In this document: piece by piece, positions 9,586 to 30,359 of the stretch
How the letters are laid out: each line of letters opens with the position of its first letter
How positions within the stretch are numbered: the first letter of the stretch is position 1
Virus record (IMG/VR): IMGVR_UViG_2974770163_000001
Location: 32,001 to 96,000 of that record
Length of the DNA stretch: 64,000 nt
From: a virus
Lineage: Duplodnaviria > Caudoviricetes
Direction: 5' to 3' (one strand)
Program-made: the position numbers and the translations under genes
The notes under the pieces: generated by a model
The model's database searches: none
Told to the model about the DNA's origin: nothing
What the model saw: only the letters and a program-made list of their open reading frames with translations

Positions 9586-10793
9586 TACTCGGCTCCTTGT
9601 TTAGCTTTAATAGTGAATTGCCCTTCTCCACCGAACTGTTGCCGCCCTTTAGATGGGTAGTTTTCATCTACAGCAACTACAATAAACTTAACTACTTTGT
9701 CAGGTTGCCCAACTTCTGGAACTTTTTTAACCGTTAAAGGAATAGGGTTGTTACCTATTTTAACTCCTGGAGTTACATATTCTAGGTCATTAGAGTCGAC
9801 TAAAGATACTTCTAGTGAACCGCTTTGATATTGCCCCTTAACAAGGGTTGTCTCGAGCATAACAGAGTCGGTGGTATCGGAAATCTCCTCAACATCTTGC
9901 TCCCAAGTTAGTTCTAATTTATCAGCAGTAGTTTTAACAACTGTTACATTCAGAGTTCCGTGATTAGTAGGCGCTGATGCTCCGCTTCCCTGTTTAATAC
10001 TAAACAATGTTAGCGGGATAATAGCATCCTCTTCCTCTGCTAAGCTATTACATGTAATGGATATTTTATTTTCGTCATATATACGACTTGTATTTACTAG
10101 TCTAGCTAAGCTTTCTGGTAAGTCCTCTGGGAAGTCTATCCAAATTTGGTCAGGCTCCTCACCACTTAGTATAGTATAGTTAGCAAATACTTCATCATCT
10201 TTATGAGTTAAAGTATCGCGAGTAAGTTCCCAAGAGATCCTGGTCTCTTTCGTCTTACTCAAGGAGATAGATACAGTAGGGGAGCTTACAGTTGTGTCTG
10301 GATAATTCTTATCCTTAACTGTAAATGTTATAGACGCAGTTGCGTCTACGTTACCCTGTTCAGAGTAAGTAACTGTCATTGTATTTGTTTCTTCGTCAAA
10401 CGCAGAGAATTCCACATTGAGAGGATCAACATCTGAATCGACAACCGGTTCTACCCCAGTAGCGTAATTAATAGACCCCGGCAAGTACTCTCCCTCTAAT
10501 ATGTTAAGGGTAATGGTGGCCTTACTTCCCTTACTTGTAAGGGTAGCAGGATTTGCCAGAGCTTCAAATATGAGCTTCGGCTTTGGGGGCTCTACCTCTC
10601 CACCCTCTTCATCAGAAACTAATGCTTTCCAGTTAGCACGATTAGTGTACGCTGGGCTACGACTCATTGCTTTACGAAGCTCTTGATAAGACTTAAATGG
10701 GGCATCTTCTCGCGCCATTATTTCATTGCAAGAATCTGGAATTCCATCTGGGAACATCTCATTTAGTGCTCCCAGGATTTCTTCTCTAGTCAT
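9585..10793 (-). CDS. pb10: Capsid decoration protein (pb10-like N-terminal anchor plus about three beta-rich/Ig-like domains)
   Basis: SYQELRKAMSRSPAYTNRANWK resembles the pb10 capsid-binding domain; lies between portal and protease; acidic beta-rich repeats. Confidence 0.75.
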   Translation of the reverse strand: MTREEILGALNEMFPDGIPDSCNEIMAREDAPFKSYQELRKAMSRSPAYTNRANWKALVSDEEGGEVEPPKPKLIFEALANPATLTSKGSKATITLNILEGEYLPGSINYATGVEPVVDSDVDPLNVEFSAFDEETNTMTVTYSEQGNVDATASITFTVKDKNYPDTTVSSPTVSISLSKTKETRISWELTRDTLTHKDDEVFANYTILSGEEPDQIWIDFPEDLPESLARLVNTSRIYDENKISITCNSLAEEEDAIIPLTLFSIKQGSGASAPTNHGTLNVTVVKTTADKLELTWEQDVEEISDTTDSVMLETTLVKGQYQSGSLEVSLVDSNDLEYVTPGVKIGNNPIPLTVKKVPEVGQPDKVVKFIVVAVDENYPSKGRQQFGGEGQFTIKAKQGAE

Positions 10794-17954: not shown

Positions 17955-18209
17955 TTAGTTTGTCAACGGTTGCACACTCAAAAGATTTGTAAAGTTTTGT
18001 AAGATAATTCTTAAAGCTAGGTCTTTACTATTTGGGCTACCATCTGACAAAGCACTTGATGCTATATCTATAATGGCATCAGCCGCTACCCGATTAATAA
18101 CTAAGTAACCTTTAGCATTTAATTCTACTACTAATTGATTAAGTTGTTCTTGGCTCATTTCTTTGTTAGGGCTTAATTCGATAACGTTTGACATAATGAC
18201 CTCACACAA
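17955..18209 (-). CDS. Hypothetical pre-early protein
   Basis: GAGGT RBS before the internal MSNVIEL start. Confidence 0.65.
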   Translation of the reverse strand: MCEVIMSNVIELSPNKEMSQEQLNQLVVELNAKGYLVINRVAADAIIDIASSALSDGSPNSKDLALRIILQNFTNLLSVQPLTN

Positions 18210-18290
18210 TTTAAGAATATTGATATTAGCTGGTTAACGTCTAACTAAGTAACTAACTAGGGCTAACCAACTAATAGAGATTATATCAAA

Positions 18291-19007
18291 CTAGGCAGAA
18301 ATAGCAACCAGTTTATTAAACTTACTGCTTAAATAGTCTCTTTCTTCCTGAGTATAACTACACCATGCCGTTTCGATATGTTCCGCTAATGCTTCAGGGT
18401 CGTGTAGTTCTTCCATCACTTGATCAATGAATTGTTCACCAGCCATGCGATAACCAACGTTTAACACGTCATTAACAAGCGTAGCATCTACAACTTGAAA
18501 GCCCATTTCACGAGCAACAGATAACACGCCTTGATGATCATCGTAAACGGTTATAACAGCGTTTGGATACATAGCTTGCAAGATTTCAAAGTATTTCCGC
18601 TTATATTCAGCATCACGGCTATAATAAACGTCTTTGATATCTTCAAGGGCAAAATAACGGGCTAAGGTAGTTCTGCTCATGATACTGGCGGCTTGCGGTT
18701 TATTAGTTGTTAAACCTTGTTTGCGTAGGTAGTAATAATCGGATTTATACATTGTTCTGGCTGTTACTATTACGTTATGAGTATCACCCTTATTGATATT
18801 CTCTTTCATGACAGCCGCTAAGGGTAGCAGTGTATCAGCTTGTACTAGCTCATGAGTACAAGCATTTTGGATATATCCAGTTAAATCTAGGTTGCCCGTT
18901 TCTTCGTCTAGGTATGGTCTAACACGATGAAAGCTATTTATTACAGTGCCATCAAGGTCAAAGATATTAAGAAACTTGATATCATTAAATACTCGTGTTT
19001 GTTGCAT
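18291..19007 (-). CDS. dmp: Deoxynucleoside 5'-monophosphatase (HAD family)
   Basis: FDLDGTVINSFHRV, TAR, KSDYYYLRKQGL and DDH motifs as in T5 Dmp; start placed at MQQTR after GAGGT. Confidence 0.93.
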   Translation of the reverse strand: MQQTRVFNDIKFLNIFDLDGTVINSFHRVRPYLDEETGNLDLTGYIQNACTHELVQADTLLPLAAVMKENINKGDTHNVIVTARTMYKSDYYYLRKQGLTTNKPQAASIMSRTTLARYFALEDIKDVYYSRDAEYKRKYFEILQAMYPNAVITVYDDHQGVLSVAREMGFQVVDATLVNDVLNVGYRMAGEQFIDQVMEELHDPEALAEHIETAWCSYTQEERDYLSSKFNKLVAISA

Positions 19008-19093
19008 GGTTGTTACCTCTCGCATTTAAGCGGTTTATTTTTGGAGTTCTAAGTATAAAGAAAGCCCCTGAGTATATCAAGGGCTTAACAGTG

Positions 19094-19558
19094 TTATTCT
19101 TCGGTGAACAAAGCAGGCTGAACAGGATTAATAAAAGTTACTTTAATTTTGTAAGGGCTTTCGCTTCTAGCATTAATAGGTGATACTAGCACTTGCCAGC
19201 CAGCTTCTACAAAGTCCGCTAGGTCTGAGAATAAAAAATCACTCTCTGTCATTAATACAATAACTTCGGTTACATTAACCTTAGTCGTATCAATATCAAT
19301 AAAGGAGTAATAATCCTCTAATGATTTTGCAACATTTTCTATATGTTGAGTAGGCAAGCCACCCGTTACACCCTCCGCAATGTTGCCAAAAATACGGGGT
19401 AAAGCCGATTCGATAGCAGCCGCAACGCTTGCCGCTTCTTGGTCGTTGTTGATCAAGCCTTTACCATAACGAATAATTGAGCCGTCAACAATGTTAATAT
19501 TCTCAATAGCCCCGTTGTCAAATGTTTTGCCGTTGCTGTATACAGTGATCATTTTCAT
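19094..19558 (-). CDS. Hypothetical pre-early protein
   Basis: ORF with RBS in the leftward FST operon. Confidence 0.75.
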   Translation of the reverse strand: MKMITVYSNGKTFDNGAIENINIVDGSIIRYGKGLINNDQEAASVAAAIESALPRIFGNIAEGVTGGLPTQHIENVAKSLEDYYSFIDIDTTKVNVTEVIVLMTESDFLFSDLADFVEAGWQVLVSPINARSESPYKIKVTFINPVQPALFTEE

Positions 19559-19580
19559 GGTTGTTCTCTCTTATTAAGGT

Positions 19581-19781
19581 TTATTCGATTTCGTAGCCAT
19601 CACTATCTAGGATAGTAGAATCTACATTTTCGTTAAGTTGTTCTTGCTCCGCTTCGGTACGGATAGCGGCTTGCTGATCATATGTTAAGGAGTTCCATTC
19701 TTCAACGGATAACCCCGTTTCTACAACGTGGGCAGCCCCTAGCCCATAACCAAAAGTAACATGAATGTTAACAGTTTTCAT
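19581..19781 (-). CDS. Hypothetical pre-early protein (acidic)
   Basis: AGGA RBS; operonic. Confidence 0.7.
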   Translation of the reverse strand: MKTVNIHVTFGYGLGAAHVVETGLSVEEWNSLTYDQQAAIRTEAEQEQLNENVDSTILDSDGYEIE

Positions 19782-20012
19782 TTAATTGTATTCCTGTTTA
19801 ATTCGTGCTATTTGGTGCATTGGGTAAAAGTATTCAGTATCGGGCGTGTCAGTGAAACTCACAAACAAGCCAGCCGTGTCAATATCAACGGTATCGACAT
19901 TCTCAAATACTACCTCTTTTGCATCTTCTTTAAGAAAGCCGTTAGCTTTTAACTTAGACATAACAGCATCAATAAAGATAACCTTAACAACAGTTACATG
20001 TTTCATATTCAT
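19782..20012 (-). CDS. Hypothetical pre-early protein
   Basis: GGAG RBS; YFYPMHQIARIK tail. Confidence 0.7.
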   Translation of the reverse strand: MNMKHVTVVKVIFIDAVMSKLKANGFLKEDAKEVVFENVDTVDIDTAGLFVSFTDTPDTEYFYPMHQIARIKQEYN

Positions 20013-20068
20013 TGCTCCAATGGTAGCCCCTACACAATATAGGGGCGTTGGGTTTAAATTTAAATTAA

Positions 20069-21832
20069 TTAAGCGCGATACTTGCCATTTGTAATTCTTA
20101 CTAGCTGGCGTTGCCCGTTGTTATAGGTAATCAAGTGCGTTTGAGTCCAGCTAGAAGCCCCGATATTATAGCCCATATCTAATGAGCCAGCAACTCCAGC
20201 AGTGTAACATAAGCCGTTTACGCTTGCACTATGAGTGTGACCAGTATTTAAGCGTCCTAACTTCGCAAACTGTTTTGGATTCCCTCGTGAGCCATTAGCC
20301 CCAACATGACCATGACAGCCCATTTCTACGCCAGCGACCTTGAAAGATTCGTCAACAACTAAGAAGCGTATTTGCTCGGCATTCTCTAGCTTAGCTATCT
20401 TTTTAAGCCCTACTTCTAGCGCATTCCAGCCACTGGCGGATTTATGTTCCGCAATATGGCGATATTTATCAAGGTTCATTTCATGATAGAGAATGGCGTT
20501 AGCAGGATCTAGCCCTATATTAACATCCCATGCTTTCAACCAATTTGCTAGGGCTAAATCGTGGTTTGACTCAACGACAACTATCTCACTAAATGGGCGC
20601 ATGATATCGCGGAAAATGTTAGCCGTATCAATGAGATCTTGTTTAACGCTTTCTTGCCCTAAATAATAACGCTCCGCAATAAAATCATAATCACGTCTAT
20701 TGTGATGATTTCGGCTTGTAAAGTCGTGGCTATCATGACAGATAGTAAACTTAGGCTTTAACAAGTCAATCATCGACGGGTAGCCATGCAAGCCAGCACC
20801 CCATGAACAAGCCGCTACAACATGATCAATCTTTTCTGCATGAAGATCACCGAACTGTAAAGCAGAAACATGATTTTCAGCTCTAAACACTTGATCACTT
20901 GTTACATAAGTATCAAGATCATAAAACGAGCCATCATCATTCATGCATTGTAAATGGCGTATAAATGGCGTGTCGTTATCGTCGAATTCTACTAAGATTG
21001 CACCATAGCAATGCAATGATTCTGCTTTCTGACCAGCTAGGCGCTGAATATAATTTCGATGCGTAACCGTTCCCGTTGTAGTTAACTCTCTAACTAGCTC
21101 ACCTTTTAGAGCAGGAATATTAAACATCTGATACTTGGCAGCAGGTACAACCGCATGATGATTGCCTATAATGCTTTCAATGCCTGTTAATGGGTTAATA
21201 GCAGTAGGGGAAATGCATAAAGCACCTAAGAAAGATACTTTCTTGCTTTCGCCTAGAAACACGTTTTCCTCAACAAAATAAGGGGTTAATTCTGGCGCAT
21301 ACCACAATGAATCATCTTGCGCGGTCGGATTCGCGTAGCCTTTCTTGTTATATGCAAATTTAGAGATGATTAATTCAGCCCCTAAATATTCTGCATACGT
21401 TTCTAAGGATTTCAGGAAAGGCACGTTAACAGACGTGTTATTTTGAGCCGTTGTCAAAATAAATGCCTTGCCTGATTTAACTTGCCATTTTGATTGAGCA
21501 GGTTTGAGCGAGCCACCATATACAGGCAAATCAGGGTTATCAGCTTTACGGGCTTTAGCCTTTGTTACTGGCTTGTTCTCATTCAGCCATACTCTGATAG
21601 CAGCCGTGAATTCTGGTTTAATGACTTGCTCCCCGTCCTCGGTGTCATACGCTAGATTTTCCGCTATAACATCCGCTAAACTAGACAGGGCAAACGCTTC
21701 GTTTGCCGTTTTATCTTTTACGGATTCTAGGCGTTTTCCATAGTAATTAACGCCTTTAGCGCATTCTAGCAGGTCAGCCGCCAGATTTTTATCTGCTAAT
21801 AGGTCTGAAATAGTTTTTAAAATGGGATTCAT
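20069..21832 (-). CDS. A1: A1 protein (host DNA degradation / second-step transfer; metallophosphoesterase-like C-terminus)
   Basis: NYYGKRL, TTAQNNT, GDLHAE, SNHD, CHGH and GHTHS motifs; 587 aa. Confidence 0.93.
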   Translation of the reverse strand: MNPILKTISDLLADKNLAADLLECAKGVNYYGKRLESVKDKTANEAFALSSLADVIAENLAYDTEDGEQVIKPEFTAAIRVWLNENKPVTKAKARKADNPDLPVYGGSLKPAQSKWQVKSGKAFILTTAQNNTSVNVPFLKSLETYAEYLGAELIISKFAYNKKGYANPTAQDDSLWYAPELTPYFVEENVFLGESKKVSFLGALCISPTAINPLTGIESIIGNHHAVVPAAKYQMFNIPALKGELVRELTTTGTVTHRNYIQRLAGQKAESLHCYGAILVEFDDNDTPFIRHLQCMNDDGSFYDLDTYVTSDQVFRAENHVSALQFGDLHAEKIDHVVAACSWGAGLHGYPSMIDLLKPKFTICHDSHDFTSRNHHNRRDYDFIAERYYLGQESVKQDLIDTANIFRDIMRPFSEIVVVESNHDLALANWLKAWDVNIGLDPANAILYHEMNLDKYRHIAEHKSASGWNALEVGLKKIAKLENAEQIRFLVVDESFKVAGVEMGCHGHVGANGSRGNPKQFAKLGRLNTGHTHSASVNGLCYTAGVAGSLDMGYNIGASSWTQTHLITYNNGQRQLVRITNGKYRA

Positions 21833-21907
21833 TTATATAGCTCCTAATTAAAGGGTTTTAGTGGTAACGAACTAGCCACCTCCGAAAAGGTGACTAGGGC
21901 GAATCAC

Positions 21908-22372
21908 TTATAAGCGATCGATGCCGTTTTCTTCCATAATGCCCTGTAATACATCATCAGGACATACCTTTTTAACAATCATAATGATTGTATCAAGGTT
22001 GGCTTTTTCAAGACTAGCCCAATCGTCTTTTTCTTGATCGTTGTCGGACATATCACGCTGAAGGGCACGAATCAGAGTGATTTTTTGTAATTTCTTACCG
22101 CCGCCAACTGGCTGCTTTACTTCAAGGGCACGATAAATTTTGTTGCCGTTTTCATCTTTAGAAGATGACAACTTAGTACGGACAGCCGTAGCCGTGTACG
22201 TTTCACCATCACCGCTAATTTGTTCACCGATAGACGCTAGATTATCGACAGCGTTTGCCGCTGTGATTTCCGCATCAGTTGGGGCGGTTGGGTCAGCAAA
22301 TGCCGCTAAATATAAATCGATAGCTTTTGCGGTTACTTCTTCATTCCAGCGTTTTTTAGATGGAGTAGACAT
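21908..22372 (-). CDS. A2: A2 DNA-binding protein (second-step transfer)
   Basis: WNEEVTAKAI...VRTKLSS...VGGG...ASLEKANLDT resembles T5 A2. Confidence 0.88.
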   Translation of the reverse strand: MSTPSKKRWNEEVTAKAIDLYLAAFADPTAPTDAEITAANAVDNLASIGEQISGDGETYTATAVRTKLSSSKDENGNKIYRALEVKQPVGGGKKLQKITLIRALQRDMSDNDQEKDDWASLEKANLDTIIMIVKKVCPDDVLQGIMEENGIDRL

Positions 22373-22570
22373 AATTTAATACCTCATTTTTCATGGTTTA
22401 AGTTTAAGTTATACACTTCTCATTAGTGTATTATGAATAGAGCCTGTCTGTCAAGCCCTATTAATTACACTATCAAGAGGAGTCTAAGCAATGGCAACTG
22501 CTTAATGAAGCCCTGAATTTCAAGGCTTGTTTAAGCATCCAATCTTAGCTATTTCACCGTGTTTTCCGTA

Positions 22571-22638
22571 TTGTTAAAGAGCGTGGTTAGTTGCCTAACC
22601 TTTGAATCTATCTTATATCAGCCGCCTGGTTAAGTCAA
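22571..22638 (-). promoter_or_regulatory. Pre-early promoter P1 with GNRA hairpin and boxA
   Basis: TTGACT-N17-TAAGAT, then GGTTAG-GCAA-CTAACC, then CGCTCTTTAACAA. Confidence 0.8.
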
Positions 22639-22642
22639 GCGT

Positions 22643-22942
22643 TTATTTCCAAATACTTCTATTAATGCTTTGTTGCGATTCTATCGTTTCTACAACTTGA
22701 ATCACTATACCTAGATTATGCCATGCTTCGCTTGCCTTGTCAAACAGTTTTTTATCACCGTTGAAATACTGATCTAGCGTAGCTTTGTAAGCGTTGCGAA
22801 TTATCTTAGCTTCTTTCTTAAGCCTTGTCAAGTCAATTTTATGATCAATTCGCTCGGTTAACGCTTCGTTTGCTGTTATGCCTTGTGAAGCTACTAAGGT
22901 ACATAACACTTGGTTAAAAGATTGTTTTGCCATGTTTGCCAT
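22643..22942 (-). CDS. Pre-early protein, probably conserved in T5-like phages
   Basis: SFNQVL...EALTERIDHKID motif; GAGGA RBS; upstream of A2. Confidence 0.75.
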   Translation of the reverse strand: MANMAKQSFNQVLCTLVASQGITANEALTERIDHKIDLTRLKKEAKIIRNAYKATLDQYFNGDKKLFDKASEAWHNLGIVIQVVETIESQQSINRSIWK

Positions 22943-22980
22943 TCCTCAATAGTTGGGTAGGCGGCTGATATAAGTTAGAT

Positions 22981-23037
22981 TATTAAAGAGCGTGTTTCTA
23001 TGGTTAGTATCTTAAAGCCTAGTAAAGTTTTTGTCAA
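22981..23037 (-). promoter_or_regulatory. Pre-early promoter P2 with boxA
   Basis: TTGACA-N17-TAAGAT, then CGCTCTTTAATA. Confidence 0.8.
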
Positions 23038-23379
23038 TTACTTATTTGAGTATTGCATAACATTTTCAATATATACGATTCTAGCCGCTATATATAAGCA
23101 ACGATAGAATCGTAAAGCTAACTGATCTTTACATATCCCATAGTGAGTGGGCATTTTTGACGCTTCGGGAAATTTTTCTTCTAGGTCTGATAATAAGCGA
23201 ACTAATGAAGCCCATTTAACAGAACCATTATCAAGCCCCTTTTCAAGATCTAACATGATGCAAGTTGCTACCTTATCGATATCATTTCTAACCACTATAG
23301 GAAATGATAATAATTCTAGTATTAACTGTAATGTATCATTGCTTAAAAAGGTTGCTTTAATCTTTCTTACTTTTGCCAT
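23038..23379 (-). CDS. Hypothetical pre-early protein
   Basis: GGAG RBS; flanked by a 22-bp inverted repeat. Confidence 0.7.
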   Translation of the reverse strand: MAKVRKIKATFLSNDTLQLILELLSFPIVVRNDIDKVATCIMLDLEKGLDNGSVKWASLVRLLSDLEEKFPEASKMPTHYGICKDQLALRFYRCLYIAARIVYIENVMQYSNK

Positions 23380-23427
23380 TTGTACTTACTCCGATAGTAT
23401 ACACTAGGCTTTAAGATACTAACCGTA

Positions 23428-23440
23428 TTTTTAAAGAGCG
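23428..23440 (-). promoter_or_regulatory. boxA-like element in the leader of the outermost leftward pre-early transcript
   Basis: CGCTCTTTAAAAA; candidate TTGCTT-N16-TAATAT promoter at about 23528-23555. Confidence 0.6.
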
Positions 23441-23733
23441 TTACTACTAGGAACTTATCCAGTCATTCATATGCCACTGGCGGCTACTTCGTGGGCTTTC
23501 CTTGCCTTGTTCCTTACTATGTGGAGTATATTATCACACTGATTAAAGAAAGCAACTATTATTTTAGATTATTTTGCTGGCGGTAGGATATAAGGAAACG
23601 GGCGCGTGATTATACACAAGTTAACTAGGAAGTAAAGAAAAACTATTTAGTAAAAGATGCAAAAAGAGCTTGCATTTAATAACCGTGGTGCTAATATGTA
23701 TCACATCGAAAGGCAAACAAAGGAGGGAGCAAA

Positions 23734-24813
23734 ATGACCGTCAAGGCACTTAAAAGCAATCGAGCGATAGCTCGAAGCGGTCACATTAACACAATTGAGC
23801 AATTAAGACAATCAGACGTTGGGGGTTTTCCATCAACTAGTATTGTTAGCCGAGCTACGCCTAGGCAGCTTAATAATATAATGCATACGGCAGGCAATGA
23901 GGAGCAATCTGTATTAACTCCTTTAAGTAGTCAAAGTGCGTATAAACATATTAAAAATTTGCTTGATTTACTTGTTTCCGGTGTGGTAGAATACATTACA
24001 ATCTACTCGCCAGATGGTACGTTAATAAGTGATCACTATTATTCTACACGTCGATCTATGGAGGAGGATTGCGATTCCGCTTACTCTAAGGCTAAGGACG
24101 ATTTACTAATCTTAGCTAGATCTAGTAATGGCATCATGTTAACATGGGGTAGCTATGACGCTAGAAAGTCGGCAGGTGTCGGGGTCAAGGTAGAGTGTGA
24201 GGTTTTCAATCAAAATGATAACCTATTTGACGCTATCTATGATATATTTAACCATGCTAACTATAACGATTTAATTGACGTGGATTTATCCGATAAGCTA
24301 CGCAATCAGGGCGTTATTATACAGGGTCATACAGTTAGCGAGAACAAGTATACACAAGTAATTATAGAGGAATTTTTAAAATCATCTATAAGCGAAGCTG
24401 GCGAAACAGCAGAGCAACCAATCGAAACCAAAGAGGAAACTAGCAAAATGAAAACAACATTCAGCACTATCTTAGCAGAAAACAAAGCAGCAGCAATCAA
24501 CGCTGGCGAGATGGAAACGGGGCGTTTAGTCGTTAATCGTATTGTGGCAGTCGTTAAAAAGCGTGCTCCGCTAATGGTTAAAGGTTACATTGATACACCA
24601 GTAGGGCGCATTGCAGTAGCAAATTTATTTGCCGCTTTAGTGCGAGAATATCTACCTGATAACGCACTGGCAGGACGTGCGGCAGACGGGGCGGTGAAGT
24701 CGGCAGCTTATGAAGTATTGCGCGATATTGATATACCAGCAATTCTGGAAGAAGTATTGGCAGGATTCAAAGAAGCGGAACCAGCACCAGCAGACGAAAA
24801 GATCGCACTGTAA
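23734..24813 (+). CDS. Hypothetical pre-early protein (possible internal start at MKTTFS)
   Basis: GGAGG RBS; Ala-rich C-terminal domain preceded by GAGGA. Confidence 0.8.
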   Translation: MTVKALKSNRAIARSGHINTIEQLRQSDVGGFPSTSIVSRATPRQLNNIMHTAGNEEQSVLTPLSSQSAYKHIKNLLDLLVSGVVEYITIYSPDGTLISDHYYSTRRSMEEDCDSAYSKAKDDLLILARSSNGIMLTWGSYDARKSAGVGVKVECEVFNQNDNLFDAIYDIFNHANYNDLIDVDLSDKLRNQGVIIQGHTVSENKYTQVIIEEFLKSSISEAGETAEQPIETKEETSKMKTTFSTILAENKAAAINAGEMETGRLVVNRIVAVVKKRAPLMVKGYIDTPVGRIAVANLFAALVREYLPDNALAGRAADGAVKSAAYEVLRDIDIPAILEEVLAGFKEAEPAPADEKIAL

Positions 24814-24861
24814 CATAAAGGCAGGGGCTAGAACTTAGCCCCTAATTAAAGAGGTGATACA

Positions 24862-25263
24862 ATGGCAAAAGTTATCAATTTTGAGTGTGTACACGTCTTA
24901 AATATCCGTACAACGGGGCAAGCGTTATCGTGGAAAAGCGCACTAGAACAGATTAGTAAGTGTACTAAATGCCAATATGTTACTGTTACATTAGGTCGCT
25001 TGGTTTTCCGTATTGACTGGCTAATACTGGCTAGTATTTACGAATCTTTACAATTAAATATGCCGTTTAGTGTTGCAGTAGGGGGCGAAATCTGGTATAT
25101 TGAACAATATCAGGACGTGGAACAATTGTTTTATAACGTTCCTGTAAGCCGTCTTTTTATGAAAGAGGGAGTAGCTTATTATGTGGGCGATATTATCGGG
25201 CTATGTGGAGAAGTTACTAAGGGTCAAGGGATTACGAATCATAGTACTGCTAATTTTAGCTGA
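24862..25263 (+). CDS. Hypothetical pre-early protein
   Basis: GAGGTG RBS. Confidence 0.75.
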   Translation: MAKVINFECVHVLNIRTTGQALSWKSALEQISKCTKCQYVTVTLGRLVFRIDWLILASIYESLQLNMPFSVAVGGEIWYIEQYQDVEQLFYNVPVSRLFMKEGVAYYVGDIIGLCGEVTKGQGITNHSTANFS

Positions 25264-25314
25264 GTTATTATATCGTGTTTTCTTTGAATCTAAGTACTAC
25301 TTTTATACGCTCCA

Positions 25315-25422
25315 ATGACCATATTTAAAGTGTTGCTAGTTAGTGGCTGTATATGTATAGTTTGGCATATATTAGCCCACTGGCTAGATAGTAGACGCTT
25401 AAAACGTATGGGTAAAGGCTGA
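25315..25422 (+). CDS. Small membrane peptide (35 aa, MTIFKVLLVSGCICIVWHILAHWLDSRRLKRMGKG)
   Basis: Hydrophobic N-terminus and basic tail; weak RBS. Confidence 0.45.
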   Translation: MTIFKVLLVSGCICIVWHILAHWLDSRRLKRMGKG

Positions 25423-25445
25423 TATCTAACCTATAGGGGGTTATA

Positions 25446-25562
25446 ATGTGGGATCTATTTCTATCCCCCAATGGGGATTTAAGCTGGCTTTCTTTGTTGC
25501 TGGCGGCTGTATGCACTATAGCTATTTTAGTGATCTTTGATGATAACGAGCCGTTACTATAG
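25446..25562 (+). CDS. Small membrane peptide (38 aa, MWDLFLSPNGDLSWLSLLLAAVCTIAILVIFDDNEPLL)
   Basis: AGGGGG RBS. Confidence 0.6.
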   Translation: MWDLFLSPNGDLSWLSLLLAAVCTIAILVIFDDNEPLL

Positions 25563-25570
25563 GGTTTTAT

Positions 25571-25657
25571 ATGAAGTGTGACAAGGTAGGCGTATATTGC
25601 AACATTCTAGCGGCTGGCATCTTTGGGTTAATGATTTTATCATGTATCTTAAAGTAA
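25571..25657 (+). CDS. Small membrane peptide (28 aa, MKCDKVGVYCNILAAGIFGLMILSCILK)
   Basis: AGGG RBS; follows the previous stop. Confidence 0.5.
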   Translation: MKCDKVGVYCNILAAGIFGLMILSCILK

Positions 25658-25740
25658 TTCTTTATATGTTGGCTATTTTATGCCCTGTGTTCGGGGCTTC
25701 AAGCGGCTTAATGTGGTTAATGACTGTATTAGCAGGATAG
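25642..25740 (+). CDS. Small membrane peptide (32 aa, MYLKVILYMLAILCPVFGASSGLMWLMTVLAG)
   Basis: Overlaps the previous ORF; strongly hydrophobic. Confidence 0.45.
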   Translation: MYLKVILYMLAILCPVFGASSGLMWLMTVLAG

Positions 25741-26140
25741 CACAAAAAGCTAAAACAATTTAATCTAGATAGGGTAATATTACCCTACCAACACAAAACG
25801 AGGGTTTAAATATGGAAAAATTAAAACTGGCATTCCCTACTGCATTTTCTGAGCTAGTTGAATGCTTTGGGGAAAAGCAAGCTGAAATTGAGCTTGAGAA
25901 GTTAGTCGAGCGTCAAAAGGTTAACCCTAAATTAGATTTAGAAGATAAGCCATTATTAGCCGCTTTTGTGTGGGAAGAAACGGAACAGGGTCATGAGTAC
26001 TGGCGAGAGCTTTTATACTCAAAAGACCTACTATCACCTTTGTTCTATTTCTTGTCCGACTCTAGCCATACAGACGACGAATAGCACGAAAAGCTAAAAC
26101 ATTTAAATTCAGGTAGGGTAATATAGCCCTACCAACACAA
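25738..26140 (+). repeat. Duplicated ~60-bp leader cassette (about 25738-25797 and 26082-26141)
   Basis: TAGCAC.AAAAGCTAAAACA.TT.AAT..AG.TAGGGTAATAT..CCCTACCAACACAAA twice, each upstream of a paralogous ORF. Confidence 0.85.
25812..26084 (+). CDS. Hypothetical protein with AAFxW...QGxEYW motif
   Basis: GAGGG RBS; AAFVWEETEQGHEYW. Confidence 0.8.
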   Translation: MEKLKLAFPTAFSELVECFGEKQAEIELEKLVERQKVNPKLDLEDKPLLAAFVWEETEQGHEYWRELLYSKDLLSPLFYFLSDSSHTDDE

Positions 26141-26169
26141 ATAAACCAATGATTTGAGAGGTAGTAAAA

Positions 26170-26598
26170 ATGACCATTATCCAACGTATGCCTAAATTTG
26201 TTTCTACTATGGTAGCAGTATTTGACGGGGACGCAGACCTTGCAGCGCAGATCATTAACGAGTTAGAAGCGGCAGGAGTAGAATTCGCAGAAAAAGATTG
26301 TGTTAGCTTGGGGGCGGCTTTTGATTGGCAGCAATCCCCGCAAGGTCGGGAGTATTGGGATATGATGGACGATAAAGCGGAGCAGGTACTAGGCGAAGAT
26401 TACCGCTTGCCAGACTTTCAAGAGTGTGGTTGTCCAGCTTGTCAAATGACCGTTAAACTAGGCGGCACAATTGATGCAATCATGGTTGTAGGATCGCTGG
26501 GCTTGCTAGTAGAGGCTATTCCTGAGCCAATGATCAAAGATATGGTAACTCGTGCTAAGGAAGATCGCCTTAAAGAAAGAGCAGGGCGCACGCACTAA
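26170..26598 (+). CDS. Hypothetical protein, paralog of the previous ORF with an extra CGCPAC motif
   Basis: GAGGT RBS; AAFDWQQSPQGREYW. Confidence 0.8.
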   Translation: MTIIQRMPKFVSTMVAVFDGDADLAAQIINELEAAGVEFAEKDCVSLGAAFDWQQSPQGREYWDMMDDKAEQVLGEDYRLPDFQECGCPACQMTVKLGGTIDAIMVVGSLGLLVEAIPEPMIKDMVTRAKEDRLKERAGRTH

Positions 26599-26669
26599 CA
26601 TTAATTTAGTTGCTAAGTTTATGCCCCCTCTATGTATAATAGGGGGCATCAAAAGAAAGGGGGTAGCAA

Positions 26670-26780
26670 ATGATCTTATTTACTTTGTGGGGCGTTATTC
26701 AGTGGGCTACATTGGTTTATATCCTCGTTACCCCGTATGTATTAAATGCCGTAGTAGCCGCACAGTTAGCAGGCGTATAA
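26670..26780 (+). CDS. Small membrane peptide (36 aa, MILFTLWGVIQWATLVYILVTPYVLNAVVAAQLAGV)
   Basis: AAGGGGG RBS downstream of TATAAT. Confidence 0.6.
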   Translation: MILFTLWGVIQWATLVYILVTPYVLNAVVAAQLAGV

Positions 26781-26831
26781 CTTCTAAGGAGGTTATACAC
26801 AAGTTAACCGTAAACAATCGAGGGTATTAAA

Positions 26832-27101
26832 ATGAAATTATCTAAACTGGTATTAGCTACTTTAGTGTTAAGCTTGGCAGGTTGTGCGACTACTGGCGAA
26901 AAACCAGCTATAACCCCTAAAACGTGTATGGGTATCATGGAAGTTTCGACCATGAATCGCACCTACTCAGTGGACTTGAAAGCCGTCAAAACTAACAAGT
27001 ATGGCGAAACGTTCTATCAGGTTAAAGGCTACAATCCATTTGTAGGCGGGGCAGGTTGGGTTCGTGAAGATGCTTTTCAGTCTGTAATATGTAATGAATG
27101 A
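26832..27101 (+). CDS. cor: Cor-like outer-membrane lipoprotein (receptor blocking / superinfection exclusion)
   Basis: LAGC lipobox; C..G....V..VK.....T.Y...G.....WV....F....C pattern of phi80/N15/T1 Cor. Confidence 0.72.
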   Translation: MKLSKLVLATLVLSLAGCATTGEKPAITPKTCMGIMEVSTMNRTYSVDLKAVKTNKYGETFYQVKGYNPFVGGAGWVREDAFQSVICNE

Positions 27102-27294
27102 GATCATATATATTAAACGCTTTATATCCCTATACTGGCATTTTATAGGGGTAGTCGAAGCGATGCACGAAAAGGCAGTTAGTGAGAATCACCAATACGG
27201 GATTGACCTAACTAGACGTAAACTAGACCGCCTTAAAATTGATCTGCTAGGCTGGCAAGATAAGCTGATGCACGAGATAAAAAATACAAAATAG
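27094..27294 (+). CDS. Hypothetical pre-early protein
   Basis: Overlaps the stop of the cor-like gene. Confidence 0.6.
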   Translation: MNEIIYIKRFISLYWHFIGVVEAMHEKAVSENHQYGIDLTRRKLDRLKIDLLGWQDKLMHEIKNTK

Positions 27295-27358
27295 TCATTG
27301 ACACTATAGCCCTTTCGATGTATATTATATGCATACACCAAAACGAGAGGGCTACAAA

Positions 27359-27628
27359 ATGATTATTCGTATTTCTGGCATTAACATAAATAACGATTTA
27401 GATATGTTTGACGCACTGGCGGGCGCAGGTTATGCAGGGGCACTAGATCGCCTAGACGATATAACAGCAGAGTTAGACGTGAGAGATTATGCCTTTAGAC
27501 AACGGGCAGGGATCGAGGAAGCAGATGTATTACAAATGATCAGTGAGCTTACATCATTAGGACTAACTCTAACGATAGTCGGAGAACCTAACACTAGCCT
27601 ATTAGAAGCCGTGATTGCAGGCAACTAA
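27359..27628 (+). CDS. Hypothetical protein, last pre-early gene
   Basis: GAGGG RBS before MIIRISG; own TTGACA-N17-TATATT promoter. Confidence 0.75.
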   Translation: MIIRISGININNDLDMFDALAGAGYAGALDRLDDITAELDVRDYAFRQRAGIEEADVLQMISELTSLGLTLTIVGEPNTSLLEAVIAGN

Positions 27629-27647
27629 CAACCATAACAACCATAAC

Positions 27648-27675
27648 AGCCTTGCAGAAATGCAGGGCTTTTTTA
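27648..27675 (+). terminator. Intrinsic terminator ending the rightward pre-early operon
   Basis: AGCCTTGCA-GAAA-TGCAGGGCT plus T-tract. Confidence 0.85.
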
Positions 27676-27786
27676 TGCCCCTAGCCTCTCAAGCCCCTAT
27701 AAGACTATCCCTATCACAATTAAACCTCTCACAATGGCTTACAGTGCGTTTCATTGGACAACCGCATTATATGCTATCAGAGACTA

Positions 27787-27802
27787 CTGTATAAATAAAC
27801 AG
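27787..27802. promoter_or_regulatory. LexA (SOS) box
   Basis: taCTGTATAAATAAACAG = CTGT-N8-ACAG with AT-rich core. Confidence 0.8.
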
Positions 27803-27840
27803 GTTCAAAACTGTGGATAAGTCCTGTGGATAAGTCGAAA

Positions 27841-27854
27841 TGAATCGATTCAGC
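27841..27854. promoter_or_regulatory. Cra (FruR) box
   Basis: GCTGAATCGATTCA on the minus strand. Confidence 0.65.
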
Positions 27855-27862
27855 AAGCCCCC

Positions 27863-27879
27863 AACTGGTCAGACCTGTG
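27863..27879. promoter_or_regulatory. FadR box
   Basis: AACTGGTCAGACCTGTG versus AACTGGTCNGACCAGTT, 2 mismatches where the DnaA box overlaps. Confidence 0.7.
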
Positions 27880-27892
27880 GATAACTTCTAAA

Positions 27893-27913
27893 TGCAAGTG
27901 AGAAGCATTCGCA
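27893..27913. promoter_or_regulatory. Fur-box-like site
   Basis: TGCAAGTGAGAAGCATTCGCA; 12/19 match to GATAATGATAATCATTATC. Confidence 0.55.
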
Positions 27914-27920
27914 TTCATTT

Positions 27921-27992
27921 AGCCGTCTAAACGTCTGGACGTCTAAACGTCTAGACGGCTGGACGTCTGGAAGGCTGGACGTCTAGACGTCC
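27921..27992. repeat. Nine in-phase tandem 8-mers matching the MetJ Met-box AGACGTCT
   Basis: agccgtct aaacgtct ggacgtct aaacgtct agacggct ggacgtct ggaaggct ggacgtct agacgtcc. Confidence 0.85.
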
Positions 27993-28120
27993 CTCTGCGC
28001 TTATGTGCATAATCGGGATCGCTTTTTCAAAACGTTACATGCGAGCTAGGCCACATGTGAATTTCTGAAAATGCAAATTCCAAAATTCTCGAAAAAATTT
28101 TTCCATTCGTAAAATATTCT

Positions 28121-28992
28121 CTCCTGCTCCCTGGCTGTTTCAATTTCCCTATACTATTTACTCTTCCACCAGCAGTTCTCCAGCCTCAAAAATAAAATGC
28201 AAATATAAAACTGAGTGCGTCTTTTCTATGGAACTCCATTTTATTTTTGATTCTCAGGAATGTGATAGCCTTAGTTTATAAATCAGTTTTGAAAACTCCG
28301 AAAATTTTAAATGCCCAGATCTATCCCAGCAATCCAGTCAGCCAGGGAAGAGGAGAAAACCAAAGAAATCACTTGACAACCAGTTTTGCTAAAGTCAATT
28401 AACCAAATTGATCCACCAGCGTTTTATAAACTAGAATATTATTTGCCCTCAGAATTTAGGTGTGAGCAATTCTCCTGTTCCCCTTCCGAATCTATTGATG
28501 CAGAGGATTCTAGGAATGCAAAATATTTATCGCTGCTAATTTGAGTTGTGGGAAACCTTGGGAAGTTGTTTGGTGGATGCTTGGGGATTTGATCAGTTGT
28601 GCCGGGGAACAGGAGAGGATTTTGTGGGATGCTCAGAAAAATCGTTGTTCGCAGAAAAACGCATTTAAAACAACCCCCCTGGTAGCTAACCGCCCTATAT
28701 CGAAAAATTATGACCTTAAAGGTGGGTAAAGGGCTTGAAAAATAAAAAATTCATGAGGCCCCAAGAACTGGATGATTCAACGGTCGGTATAAACAAATCT
28801 CTCCTGTTCCCAGGCTGTTTTAATTAGATATGATGTGAGATGTGGGTAGGATGAACTTTTATTGTCTAGATATGATGTGGCACGTGGGTAGTGTGATGAT
28901 TTATAAGGGTTAGGAAAGTCTAGGAGTGCACAATTTGTGGAGGGAAGTCACGAGAAGCTTATAGATGTGGAAGTTGAAAAAGGGAACAGGAG
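28121..28992. repeat. Dispersed CTCCTGTTCCC(T/A)GGCTG motif, six copies in alternating orientation
   Basis: 28121(+), 28339(-), 28472(+), 28605(-), 28801(+), 28982(-); further copies at 17503 and 30369. Confidence 0.85.
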
Positions 28993-29092
28993 AAATTTTT
29001 ATCTAGGAATATCTAGGTAAATGAATCTCACACCTAGCAGAATTCCAGGGTATCAAAGGTTCCAGTTCTATTATTATGTTTAGTATAGATAA

Positions 29093-29320
29093 TAAAAAAC
29101 CTCCTTGAGCGGAGGTTTATTGGTTTTATTAAACGAGTGGTTTTTAAAGAATAGAAGATCCCCAAGGATGCATAGCAGTCGCATGAAGCACTTACACGAG
29201 ACTATGTACGTTGTACCGTGATGTAATCTGTCTCTCCTTTGGTTCCGAGCCATATACATCACTTCCTAGTCAAGTAAGTGCTTTGCTGCTGTATTGACGA
29301 TAAATCTTGTTTATCTAATA
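29093..29320 (-). ncRNA. Candidate ~230-nt stand-alone structured RNA
   Basis: TTGACG-N17-TATAAT promoter (29354-29326), nested stems AAGCACTTAC/GTAAGTGCTT and GTGATGTA/TACATCAC, terminator AACCTCC-GCTCAA-GGAGGTTTTTT. Confidence 0.55.
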
Positions 29321-29372
29321 CAGATATTATAACATCAAAACTTTGTCACGTCAATGAAAAAATTTAATTCCG

Positions 29373-30359
29373 TCAAAGGTCAGTTGCACCGGGTGGAGGG
29401 CAACCGTTGACTCCTATACTTGGACTTAGATCTTTCTTAGGTGGAGTTCTCTTAGGGCTTACAATACGTTTAATCATGAATTGTTTGAATCCATTTAGTC
29501 CCACCGATATTGCTTTTACTGCTGAGTTTGATGAGGGTTTCAAAGACTTAGTTTCTTCTCTGTTAAAGTCTCCTAGTTCCATGCCTAGGTAAGAGAGGTA
29601 AGTCACGAAATCTTCATCAGAGTGCGCAAGAGCTTGCTTCACCCATTCTGGGGCCGGTGCCTTTATATGTGACCACATCGCCAATGTTGATGCGATAAAT
29701 GCTTGGGAAGTATTATGTGCATACTGTCTAGTGTATGGTAACGTTGGCTGATCAATCAGGATTGTATTTCCTTTATATAAAATACTATCTCCTGTTAATG
29801 TACCATTGTATACTACTTCCGGTATATCCTTTTCATCTAGCAGTGAGGTTAGTGGGGGTAATTCTACTACCTGTGTTCCTTCCCAGAACTCTGGTTCATC
29901 GGACATATACCCTACAACCTTACACATGTAGTAACCAGTCTTTTGTGTATGTCTGATTCGGTTGAACTCCTTGAGTTTATCCTTAGACTTAGATTTGTAA
30001 TACCTTAGAGGTTGATACTCTGGCTCAAAGATAGACTTGAACGCCACATCCATTGCAAATCTAGAGTTATGGATTCTTACAGCTGGGAAACTTACCTCTT
30101 TGTCCTCATGAATAAGTAAGTCAAAGTTTGCCACTGTCCTAGCTTCTGATAAGTCGATAGCTCCATGATAGGAGAGGAAGTGTAACGGATAAGCTGATAT
30201 GCTACGTATACACTTTCTATCTGCTGAGGGATAACGCTTGGTAAAGAAGTCCACTAGGCGCAACTCGTACTCGGAAAGCTCGGAGGTCTTCTTACCATTT
30301 AAGTCCATTAAGTCTTGATACGCTTGTTGAACTAGGGTTGGGTTTACTGATGATAACAT
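29373..30359 (-). CDS. Conserved T5-family protein, first gene beyond the FST region
   Basis: PSADRK, PLHFLSYHGAI, QPTLP and HNTSQAF motifs; AGGAG RBS. Confidence 0.85.
   Translation of the reverse strand: MLSSVNPTLVQQAYQDLMDLNGKKTSELSEYELRLVDFFTKRYPSADRKCIRSISAYPLHFLSYHGAIDLSEARTVANFDLLIHEDKEVSFPAVRIHNSRFAMDVAFKSIFEPEYQPLRYYKSKSKDKLKEFNRIRHTQKTGYYMCKVVGYMSDEPEFWEGTQVVELPPLTSLLDEKDIPEVVYNGTLTGDSILYKGNTILIDQPTLPYTRQYAHNTSQAFIASTLAMWSHIKAPAPEWVKQALAHSDEDFVTYLSYLGMELGDFNREETKSLKPSSNSAVKAISVGLNGFKQFMIKRIVSPKRTPPKKDLSPSIGVNGCPPPGATDL

Follow-up and report, generated by a model that had tools for sequence, protein, structure and literature searches.

The DNA of phage T5 stops entering the cell after 8% of it has been transferred. 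The cause of this stop has been a standing question since the 1960s, and DnaA boxes are the only current molecular proposal. The 206 bases at positions 27787–27992 of the DNA analyzed here (a 64-kb window of a 109-kb phage record) bear on this question. A preliminary description of the window had claimed that they form an array of operators for host master regulators at the end of the first-step-transfer DNA. The locus raises the question of whether the last DNA to enter before the pause is covered with sites for host proteins and, if so, what such proteins might do there.

To place the segment, we compared the window with relatives. The segment aligns with positions 9487–9691 of Providencia phage PR1, which fall in the annotated terminal repeat of that phage (1–10461; 10,461 bp), and by the PR1 annotation it lies ~770 bp inward of the end of the repeat. 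The features that surround it are as follows.

20069–21832, minus strand: A1-like DNA transfer protein gene (phrog_1745, E = 2e-198)
21908–22372, minus strand: A2-like DNA-binding protein gene (phrog_1725, E = 4e-27)
27648–27677, plus strand: intrinsic terminator with a 9-pair stem (27648–27669) and then a T run, which ends the rightward pre-early operon
27995–28000, plus strand: CTGCGC motif, at the position of the annotated 7.9% single-strand nick of T5 (AY587007)

The last ORF of the rightward pre-early operon occupies 27329–27628, and the order from there is terminator, module and T5-type nick motif CTGCGC. A terminator is annotated in PR1 at the place matching 27648. No ORF of substance was found downstream of the module before 29373, no promoter-like site is common to the module and PR1 (compared by eye), and no Rfam family was found in the region, in keeping with the earlier assertion that there is no downstream gene or clear promoter to regulate. 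In T5, the pre-early genes A1 and A2 are required for injection to resume (Davison 2020, 10.1101/866236), and section 4.2 of the same work estimates the shear point of T5 first-step DNA at ~9618, which adjoins the T5 counterpart of the module. The CTGCGC motif also lies 3′ of the module in Sugarland, Stubb, AAS21, phiR2-01, SPC35, and five Proteus phages. It probably marks the first-step boundary, where a nick would be expected by analogy. The alignment to PR1, the A1-like and A2-like genes upstream, and the matching positions of T5 palindrome D, DnaA repeats, and nick bear out the location that had been claimed for the segment, the end of the first-step-transfer DNA. By these sequence comparisons, 27787–27992 is the noncoding injection-stop module (iss, “Repeat Region 3”) of a PR1-like phage of the T5 family (Demerecviridae), for which Providencia is the presumptive host, judging from PR1.

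We then examined the module for the sites that had been proposed. All of the motif strings (LexA, three DnaA, Cra, FadR-like, Fur-like, and nine Met boxes) are present where the preliminary description had placed them, and a DnaA-consensus variant lies just outside the segment.

27785–27804, no strand: LexA-box-like palindrome, core CTGT-N8-ACAG at 27787–27802, 16/20
27812–27820, minus strand: DnaA box 1, perfect TTATCCACA
27825–27833, minus strand: DnaA box 2, perfect TTATCCACA, 4 bp after box 1
27841–27854, minus strand: Cra (FruR)-like operator, with a perfect 12-bp palindromic core at 27841–27852
27863–27879, plus strand: FadR-like or GntR-type site, 13/15, overlapping DnaA box 3 by 4 bp; assignment insecure
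27876–27884, minus strand: DnaA box 3, perfect TTATCCACA, present in PR1 in a one-mismatch version
27893–27913, no strand: Fur-like remnant with a short inverted repeat, 12/19, chance level
27921–27992, no strand: nine in-phase 8-bp Met boxes resembling a MetJ operator, eight of them 7/8 and one 5/8, mean 6.78
28004–28012, minus strand: DnaA-consensus variant TTATGCACA, from a TTWTNCACA scan, just beyond the nick-type motif

These sites span 163 of the 206 bases, or 129 if the two weak ones (FadR-like and Fur-like) are set aside. Their frequency by chance was estimated with first-order Markov surrogates of 206–216 bp, trained either on the window or on the region, in sets of 3000 or 5000. Note that sites were scored by counting mismatches to a consensus rather than with RegulonDB or RegPrecise matrices.

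LexA 20-mer, best 16/20: P = 0.0002 (window-trained); 0/5000 (region-trained)
At least one perfect DnaA box (three present), 9/9: P = 0.002 (window-trained); 0.003 (region-trained)
Cra 16-mer, best 14/16: 0/3000 surrogates (window-trained and region-trained)
FadR IUPAC consensus, best 13/15: 0/3000 (window-trained); P = 0.0013 (region-trained)
Double Met box, best 14/16: P = 0.0003 (window-trained); 0.0003 (region-trained)
Fur 19-mer, best 12/19: P = 0.27 (window-trained); 0.14 (region-trained), which is chance level
Nine control motifs (CRP, FNR, PurR, ArgR, TyrR, TrpR, IHF, LacI, PdhR): P = 0.06 to 0.94

Thus, in the comparison with chance controls, the LexA, DnaA, Cra, FadR, and MetJ sites stand above background, whereas the Fur site does not. 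Within the 64-kb window, the LexA 20-mer (at no more than five mismatches), the Cra palindrome, and the FadR consensus (at no more than two mismatches) are each unique to the module, which also holds three of the four perfect DnaA boxes and all 12 of the double-Met-box matches on both strands; the Fur consensus, at no more than seven mismatches, is matched at 182 places. The LexA, DnaA, Cra, and MetJ sites have independent support beyond the surrogates, and the FadR site does not.

The LexA-like and DnaA sites are the part of the module that recurs throughout the family. In each of the 14 T5-family loci examined, the module begins with a LexA-like palindrome and DnaA boxes; the hosts of these phages belong to Escherichia, Salmonella, Yersinia, Klebsiella, Pantoea, Proteus, Providencia, Vibrio, and Aeromonas. 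Across these loci, CTGT and ACAG are constant and the central eight bases vary, and in T5 the palindrome occupies the position annotated as “palindrome D”. The 16-mer of the window phage is identical to two SOS-box sequences of E. coli K-12, one between istR and tisB (3853301–16) and one upstream of sokE/hokE (607642–57). Unlike E. coli SOS boxes (of the tisB/istR, hokE, and umuDC type), it does not overlap a promoter-like site that PR1 also has, and the phage that carries it is virulent and lacks a repressor circuit. A minus-strand promoter-like match over the LexA box was considered as a regulated promoter and rejected, in that its −10 element is missing in PR1 and T5 (by eye). Many T5-like phages carry a second LexA-plus-DnaA copy in the divergent pre-early promoter region, which hints at a transcriptional role; in the window phage, no second LexA-like site was found in the 64 kb and no inverted partner in 18000–29400.

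That DnaA boxes are published for the T5 stop region, as had been stated, was verified in section 3.3 of the bioRxiv version of Davison 2020 (10.1101/866236), from which the consensus TTATCCACA (or TTWTNCACA) is quoted. T5 Repeat Region 3 comprises palindrome D, an IRD′-spacer-IRC′ arrangement with DnaA boxes, DRC/DRE repeats, the 7.9% nick, and DRD repeats (AY587007; Davison 2020). The window phage resembles it in location (after the pre-early genes, noncoding, within the terminal repeat, and with A1 and A2 upstream) and in the order of palindrome, DnaA boxes, spacer, DnaA box, AT-rich repeat, and CTGCGC, and a 21-nt direct repeat (27805/27869) fits the “direct repeat B” arrangement of T5. 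It differs from T5 as follows: it has no inverted partner copy (IRC/IRD) in the first-step DNA; its spacer contains the Cra-type operator; the AT-rich repeat block has shrunk to one remnant; the nine-box Met array is inserted ahead of the nick-type motif; and the DRD consensus has no matches, with other alternating repeats following CTGCGC instead. “Type 4” phages without IRC/IRD are described in Davison 2020 (10.1101/866236). The addition found at the same slot varies by lineage, being either Fur-like repeats (T5, SPC35, phiR2-01, AAS21, and Stubb) or Met arrays.

In the literature searched, only the DnaA boxes are mentioned, which agrees with the claim that a multi-repressor array had not been described, although an earlier mention in Heusterspreute 1987, Wang 2005, or the Davison 2020 supplement is possible. 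The body text of Davison 2020 contains no occurrence of LexA, MetJ, FadR, Cra, or “operator”, and its five matches to “fur” are the words further and furthermore. Among viral contigs, a protein scan with the last pre-early ORF returned a single weak locus, and the DNA pattern of a DnaA box plus a Cra site was found in none.

The Cra-like operator is a lineage-specific feature. It matches 14 of the 16 positions of the motif gcTGAAtCGaTTCAgc (PMC5888115), a quality equaled by only three sites in the E. coli K-12 chromosome. The columns TGAATCG.TTCAGC are invariant in seven of seven Providencia and Proteus (Morganellaceae) phages, and the spacer to the right of the site cannot be aligned across the same seven. 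Both Cra and FadR scored above the curated cut-off in all five Providencia and Morganella genomes.

The nine-box array has the column consensus of the Met box and is the only array of more than three boxes in the 109-kb record, which otherwise holds two three-box runs at 5.0/8. As in natural MetJ operators (metJ-metB and metF), the 8-bp boxes are in phase, and they are of the same variants as those of E. coli and Providencia. When scored with the same detector, the metJ-metB operators of 80/80 Enterobacterales loci, Providencia included, have three to six boxes with a mean of at most 6.5, in contrast to the nine boxes and mean of 6.78/8 in the phage; the phage array is longer and nearer to consensus than every one of them. 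Double boxes with no more than two mismatches number six in the phage array and one in E. coli K-12. Unlike the natural operators, the array has neither a promoter nor a met gene and lies in a virulent phage. The cognate protein is likely to be at hand, in that Providencia and Morganella MetJ are 91–93% identical to E. coli MetJ, and MetJ is listed for all of the nonsymbiont Enterobacterales, Vibrionales, and Aeromonadales surveyed in PMC3228920. The array would be a ready-made and very strong MetJ-binding element. With regard to a possible reading of the array as restriction sites, GACGTC occurs six times in the 109-kb record, against 15.7 expected, with four of the six inside the array.

Met arrays occupy the same slot in the window phage, PR1, Vibrio phage VPT02, and Aeromonas phage AhSzw-1, and a jumbo coliphage carries a Met-like array within its annotated 21.5-kb terminal repeat. 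A degenerate triple-Met-box pattern was found in 10 viral contigs, mostly high-GC phages with two to four boxes; a long array was found only in the contig L016. A 21-nt stretch of the array was found in three metagenome contigs, all of them unrelated high-GC DNA. Tandem 8-bp arrays of the same kind are present in the unrelated contigs L016 and L025. Because such arrays occur in L016, L025, and the jumbo phage terminal repeat, other array readers are conceivable, and these occurrences lend something to the view that phage proteins are the readers of the sites (A2, for instance, or a ribbon-helix-helix protein that escaped detection and binds the 8-bp array), with their likeness to host operators due to convergence or mimicry. 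An A2-like DNA-binding protein is indeed encoded upstream. We nevertheless regard this view as unlikely. Four different host consensus motifs are matched nearly perfectly side by side, a search of the 109-kb record with the MetJ and RHH_1 Pfam families had no matches (although it could overlook ribbon-helix-helix proteins that are small and divergent), and the T5 stop itself is not known to require phage protein synthesis.

The jumbo phage array also bears on the possibility that the module acts at the boundary of the terminal repeat during a later stage of the cycle, in recombination, in circle or concatemer formation, in replication priming from DnaA boxes, or in positioning a terminase or nickase, with host proteins as architectural helpers. 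The location of the module just inside the terminal-repeat end and beside the nick-type motif would suit such a role, as would the model of Davison 2020 (10.1101/866236), which has cleavage and circularization near the region. However, section 3.3.3 of that work puts the T5 replication origins at the genome center, and nothing was found that links LexA, Cra, or MetJ to packaging, which leaves a later role with a low probability, at best marginally above that of phage readers.

The FadR-like and Fur-like sites are less secure. The match of 13/15 to the putative FadR consensus exceeds the surrogates, but the assignment is insecure: at the same stringency E. coli K-12 yields 16 matches versus 19 for the control. 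The 17-mer is identical in PR1 and its core resembles the verified fadL and fadBA probes, and these observations favor a genuine site. In contrast, it is not present in the five Proteus phages, which have a different palindrome there, and it occupies the place of the second DnaA* box of T5. It also matches 10 of 14 positions of the PdhR motif. A blastn search of E. coli genomes with 33 bases around the site returned nothing at E ≤ 10. At no more than two mismatches, the 17-mer was found in 4 of 24 Providencia genomes versus two control matches, and the two of these look-alikes that were inspected are flanked by an asnS-like gene and a gene for an OmpF-like porin rather than by fad genes, which lends FadR no support. 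The FadR, GntR-type, and decayed DnaA-box readings are equally plausible. The claimed Fur site did not survive scrutiny: at 12/19 (P = 0.27 and 0.14) it is at chance level in the window, and no position in the module reaches 14/19. Fur-like repeats of 14–16/19 do occur at the same position in T5, SPC35, phiR2-01, AAS21, and Stubb. Taken alone, these two matches are thus somewhat more probably accidents than operators, the first a decayed DnaA-box partner and the second a decayed copy of the AT-rich repeat of the family.

The expectation of equivalent sites in relatives was borne out for LexA and DnaA (14/14), for Cra (7/7), and, in some phages, for the Met arrays, but the FadR-like site is shared only with PR1. 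Between the window and PR1, substitutions affect 9 of 163 box columns versus 55 of 304 columns outside. Because the 100 bp past the boxes are equally conserved, conservation in this pair does not single out the boxes. Overall, the presence of an array of host-regulator sites is partly confirmed. LexA and DnaA sites are common to the family, and the Cra site and nine-box MetJ array are the additions of this lineage.

What might such an array do? We tentatively favor, at somewhat less than even confidence, the explanation that the module is a landing pad for host proteins, which would assemble there into a nucleoprotein barrier where first-step DNA gives way to second-step DNA. Both the binding of these proteins and the link to the pause are predictions from the sites and their position. 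Of the first-step DNA, the module would enter the cytoplasm last, and pre-existing host proteins could load on it within seconds, independently of phage gene expression. A large complex, at least roughly 15 protein dimers or monomers on 200 bp, might then sit just inside the membrane, where it would set the boundary and anchor or brake the DNA. It could bar DNA-tracking machinery, such as RNA polymerase running past the pre-early terminator, from pulling in the remaining genome, and the block would persist until A1 and A2 act. The protein-loading anchor or brake that had been suggested fits the position of the module and its family-wide conservation.

The brake step would be the weakest link in this explanation, because a protein on DNA already in the cell has no obvious way to halt further entry. 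In vitro, T5 reportedly delivers its entire genome into FhuA liposomes, a result that implies no more than a requirement for some component of the cell. In phage T7, RNA polymerase pulls the DNA in, and events on DNA that has entered decide further entry. This transcription-driven entry is a precedent, although the proposal for T5-type phages would be its reverse, with bound proteins preventing the pulling. In the DnaA model of Davison, membrane-bound DnaA holds the DnaA boxes of iss; the idea is the same as for the landing pad, namely that a host protein already present catches the first-step DNA at its end. Equally good sites exist for at least three other host regulators, none of them a membrane protein, so tethering by DnaA at the membrane alone would not explain the module.

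A related proposal puts the release of the proteins, rather than their binding, at the center. The sites would form a timer or sensor that ties second-step transfer to the state of the host, with LexA cleaved after the breakdown of host DNA activates RecA, MetJ responding to a fall in SAM, and Cra and FadR to their effectors. All of the regulators involved are effector-controlled, and LexA is the sole universal site besides DnaA. The degradation of host DNA by T5-type phages during the pause (10.64898/2026.04.02.716235) also accords with a sensing role. Nevertheless, Fur, Cra, and MetJ sites are swapped among lineages at the same slot, which is hard to reconcile with a specific signal and argues for a generic role of the add-on sites, and resumption in T5 depends on A1 and A2 and not on a metabolite change. 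We consider a sensor improbable.

More improbable still is the suggestion that the array is a sponge, which would titrate host repressors and derepress the SOS, methionine, carbon, or lipid regulons. The near-ideal sites with no promoter, and the two copies per genome that become numerous after replication, would be appropriate to a sponge. However, one LexA site is not expected to titrate the LexA of a cell, given the abundance of this protein, and during the pause there is a single copy of the array per infecting genome. The window phage has A1-like and A2-like genes, and the host chromosome is degraded in the same pause (10.64898/2026.04.02.716235), which would leave derepressed host genes without a template.

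Returning to the landing pad, its strongest form would make host regulators the cause of the injection pause. LexA and DnaA, together with the MetJ, Cra, or Fur arrays of each lineage, would clamp the last 200–300 bp of first-step DNA into a plug, to be opened by A1 and A2 or by effector-driven or cleavage-driven release. We regard this form as doubtful, about on a par with the sensor. If it were true, the similar MetJ-type arrays in the terminal repeat of the jumbo coliphage would mean that the same strategy had been put to use a second time, independently.

The 200 bases that end the first-injected DNA appear to consist almost wholly of near-ideal sites for host proteins, which points to host candidates for the pause. 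If no host protein binds, the palindrome conserved across the family and the arrays would call for a reader all the same, and a phage protein would have to fill that role. Should the stop region prove to be a pad that offers several named host proteins near-ideal sites, the old question of why T5 DNA stops would become a matter of cheap experiments, and the T5 family would offer a rare case of a virulent phage that uses host repressor operators for something beyond gene regulation.

The window spans positions 32001–96000 of a viral record 109,434 bp long. The closest named relative of this record is Providencia phage vB_PreS_PR1 (PR1; Priunavirus, Demerecviridae), with 88% identity over 27645–28100. 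The 206-bp region (27787–27992) aligns with PR1 9487–9691, just past an annotated terminator and within the annotated 10,461-bp terminal repeat of that phage. The gene layout around the region is that of T5 first-step-transfer DNA, and the region occupies the place of T5 "Repeat Region 3", a candidate injection stop signal according to the available text of Davison 2020 (bioRxiv 10.1101/866236).

Features around the 206-bp region
20069–21832, minus strand, A1-like DNA transfer protein gene, upstream
21908–22372, minus strand, A2-like DNA-binding protein gene, upstream
27628, plus strand, end of rightward operon, followed by an intrinsic terminator
27648–27669, intrinsic terminator after the rightward operon
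29373, next substantial ORF past the region, on the strand opposite to the rightward operon

The region is best described as a lineage variant of a known one. DnaA boxes in the T5 iss have already been published, and the accessible portion of the same preprint proposes that membrane-bound DnaA holds them (10.1101/866236); the statement in the preliminary description that DnaA-box-like repeats are reported at the injection stop is borne out there for T5. That text has zero mentions of LexA, MetJ, FadR, Cra, or operators, and a 2023 BF23 paper, in its available part, reports only DnaA boxes and states that functional studies are lacking. Among the matches listed by full-text searches pairing LexA, MetJ, or Fur boxes with T5 and T5-like phages, none was relevant, and a host-operator composition beyond DnaA boxes was not found in the literature so covered.

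A direct sequence check located every string named in the preliminary description at its stated coordinates. Significance was assessed by comparing the best consensus match with surrogates of the 206-bp region, with two P values where given.

Best matches in the 206-bp region
LexA 20-mer: 16/20, P = 0.0002
Perfect DnaA box: three present, P = 0.002 for at least one
Cra 16-mer: 14/16, 0/3000 surrogates
FadR consensus: 13/15, P ≤ 0.0013
Double Met box: 14/16, P = 0.0003
Fur consensus: 12/19, P = 0.27/0.14

None of nine control regulator motifs exceeded surrogates in this region (P 0.06–0.94). Because a few hundred regulator motifs are, by estimate, available to a reader, a single P value near 0.001 is not safe alone. 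Across the record, 12 double Met boxes with ≤2 mismatches were counted on both strands versus 0.03 expected, all inside the array, and Fur consensus matches at ≤7 mismatches numbered 305 versus 261 expected. Of the proposed operator array, the putative LexA, DnaA, Cra, and MetJ sites, which exceed surrogates and have independent support, are confirmed as sequence matches, whereas the FadR site is insecure and the Fur-like site stands at chance level.

The E. coli K-12 chromosome carries seven sites matching the LexA 16-mer consensus at ≤2 mismatches (control, two). Two are letter-identical to the phage 16-mer, one between istR and tisB and one upstream of sokE/hokE; both loci are SOS-regulated. 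At the homologous position in T5, the annotated "palindrome D" matches the LexA 20-mer at 19/20. A minus-strand promoter-like match (10/12, 27766–27795) has a −35 region overlapping the LexA-like box; it was set aside, its −10 element being absent by eye from PR1 and T5.

The phage Met array comprises nine in-phase boxes with a mean of 6.78. Run on 8.5 kb of E. coli DNA, the box detector recovered exactly the metJ-metB and metF operators, with four boxes each and means of 6.0 and 5.5. It found the metJ-metB operator in 80/80 Enterobacterales loci (three boxes in 3 loci, four in 73, five in 1, and six in 3), with a highest mean of 6.5; Providencia operators have five to six boxes and means of 6.0–6.17. 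The 4.6-Mb K-12 genome holds one double Met box at ≤2 mismatches, and MetJ from Providencia, the likely host genus, and from Morganella is 91–93% identical to that of E. coli. The record has fewer GACGTC sites than expected (6 observed, 15.7 expected), and four of the six copies fall within the array (27938, 27962, 27978, and 27986).

Similar arrays occur elsewhere. Escherichia jumbo phage vB_Ec-M-J (L006:765–916) carries 18 in-phase Met-like 8-bp boxes (4+14, mean about 6/8) inside an annotated 21.5-kb direct terminal repeat, ~800 bp from the left end of the record, with no LexA, DnaA, or Fur match nearby; a similarity search matched the corresponding part of the query to ~28 further records from jumbo coliphages and Salmonella phages. 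A 42,685-bp viral contig (L016:4046–4313) has at least 27 such boxes in four adjoining runs, followed by at least two to three copies of ~100-bp tandem direct repeats containing TGTGGAT. A metagenome contig (L025:1455–1500) has boxes of this family in a short tandem array, flanked on both sides by sequence that by eye appears to be coding, and proteins other than MetJ may read arrays of this kind.

The Cra-like site has a perfect core and agrees with the published motif gcTGAAtCGaTTCAgc (available text of PMC5888115) at 14/16 positions; K-12 has only three sites as good. Cra and FadR proteins score above curated cut-offs in four Providencia genomes and one Morganella genome. The FadR assignment of the predicted site at 27863 is insecure. 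Its stringency applied to E. coli gave 16 matches versus 19 for the reversed control, it also matches the PdhR/GntR pattern (10/14), and T5 has a second, degenerate DnaA box in its place. Look-alikes in Providencia genomes adjoin a porin gene, not fad genes: three genomes (L107:1501–1517, L109:1501–1517, and L110) carry a one-mismatch copy of the 17-mer, which in the two loci inspected (L107 and L109) is intergenic, with an asnS-like tRNA synthetase gene on one side and an OmpF-like porin gene on the other. The corresponding spacer position in Proteus phages holds a 22-bp AT-rich palindrome (L019:9194–9215; same columns in L113–L116).

Motifs were mapped in ten loci (the window, PR1, T5, SPC35, phiR2-01, Pantoea AAS21, Klebsiella Sugarlandvirus, Proteus phage Stubb, Vibrio phage VPT02, and Aeromonas phage AhSzw-1), and four more Proteus phages were aligned. 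The palindrome CTGT-N8-ACAG, with constant arms and variable central eight bases, opens the region beside DnaA boxes (≤1 mismatch) in 14/14 T5-family loci. The Cra-like site is invariant in seven phages (PR1, five Proteus phages, and, allowing one central change, the window) beside a spacer unalignable between Providencia and Proteus phages. Met arrays are present in four of the ten loci (9 boxes in the window, PR1, and VPT02; 16 in AhSzw-1) and absent from the other six. The FadR-like site was present only in the window and PR1.

AT-rich repeats come next in most loci, matching the Fur consensus at 14–16/19. The match is significant in T5, SPC35, phiR2-01, AAS21, and Stubb and weakly significant in VPT02 and AhSzw-1; the window, PR1, and Sugarlandvirus give no significant match. 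The T5-group "direct repeat C / palindromes E–I" block has several such matches per phage (14–16/19), far above composition-matched surrogates.

Positions of this block in comparison loci
L003:775–840 (T5 AY587007 about 9574–9640)
L022:7465–7611
L021:7205–7393
L020:9382–9562

A CTGCGC-type end motif occurs in seven of the ten loci (T5, where a 7.9% nick is annotated at this point, SPC35, phiR2-01, AAS21, Sugarlandvirus, Stubb, and VPT02) and was not seen adjoining the array in AhSzw-1. Stubb, AAS21, phiR2-01, and SPC35 have a second, inverted LexA+DnaA copy in the pre-early promoter region, which the window phage lacks. Its own divergent pre-early promoter region (22570–23445) contains a 19-mer with TTAAAGAGCG in three spaced copies, together with two inverted pairs of 23–25 nt that are nearly perfect (22605/22959 and 22999/23403). 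Of two identical 16-mers starting with a DnaA-consensus variant (TTATACACA), one (23610–23625) precedes the first rightward pre-early gene and the other (26793–26808) precedes the ORF at 26832. Copies of a CTCCTGTTCCC-type element in alternating orientation fill the remaining non-coding region (28117–29005), with inverted pairs at 28117/28339, 28601/28799, 28470/28979, and 28788/28982, where T5 has DRD repeats.

The region is built of predicted maximal-affinity sites for proteins present before infection. Its universal parts are LexA and DnaA, and the others vary by lineage (Fur-like, Cra, or MetJ), a pattern in keeping with a function that depends more on bulk and affinity than on which regulator binds. 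The region has no promoter, comes after a terminator, and forms the final stretch of first-step DNA ahead of the nick-type boundary. Taken together, this pattern and position lead us to favor, tentatively and as possible rather than probable, a landing pad for host proteins, for which we infer both binding and function. Proteins already present would form a nucleoprotein barrier at the first-step boundary, which might anchor or brake the DNA and also obstruct RNA polymerase, or other factors tracking along it, that would otherwise be able to pull in more DNA. How bound proteins would halt the entry of DNA is the weakest point of the proposal. Titration of host repressors by the array is unlikely because the region is single copy during the pause, when host DNA is also degraded (available part of 10.64898/2026.04.02.716235). 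Less likely than the landing pad, though possible, are a release timer or sensor made of host proteins on the region, a phage protein that reads the sites, and a function later in the cycle at the boundary of the terminal repeat. The region turns the old question of the T5-type injection stop into direct experiments.
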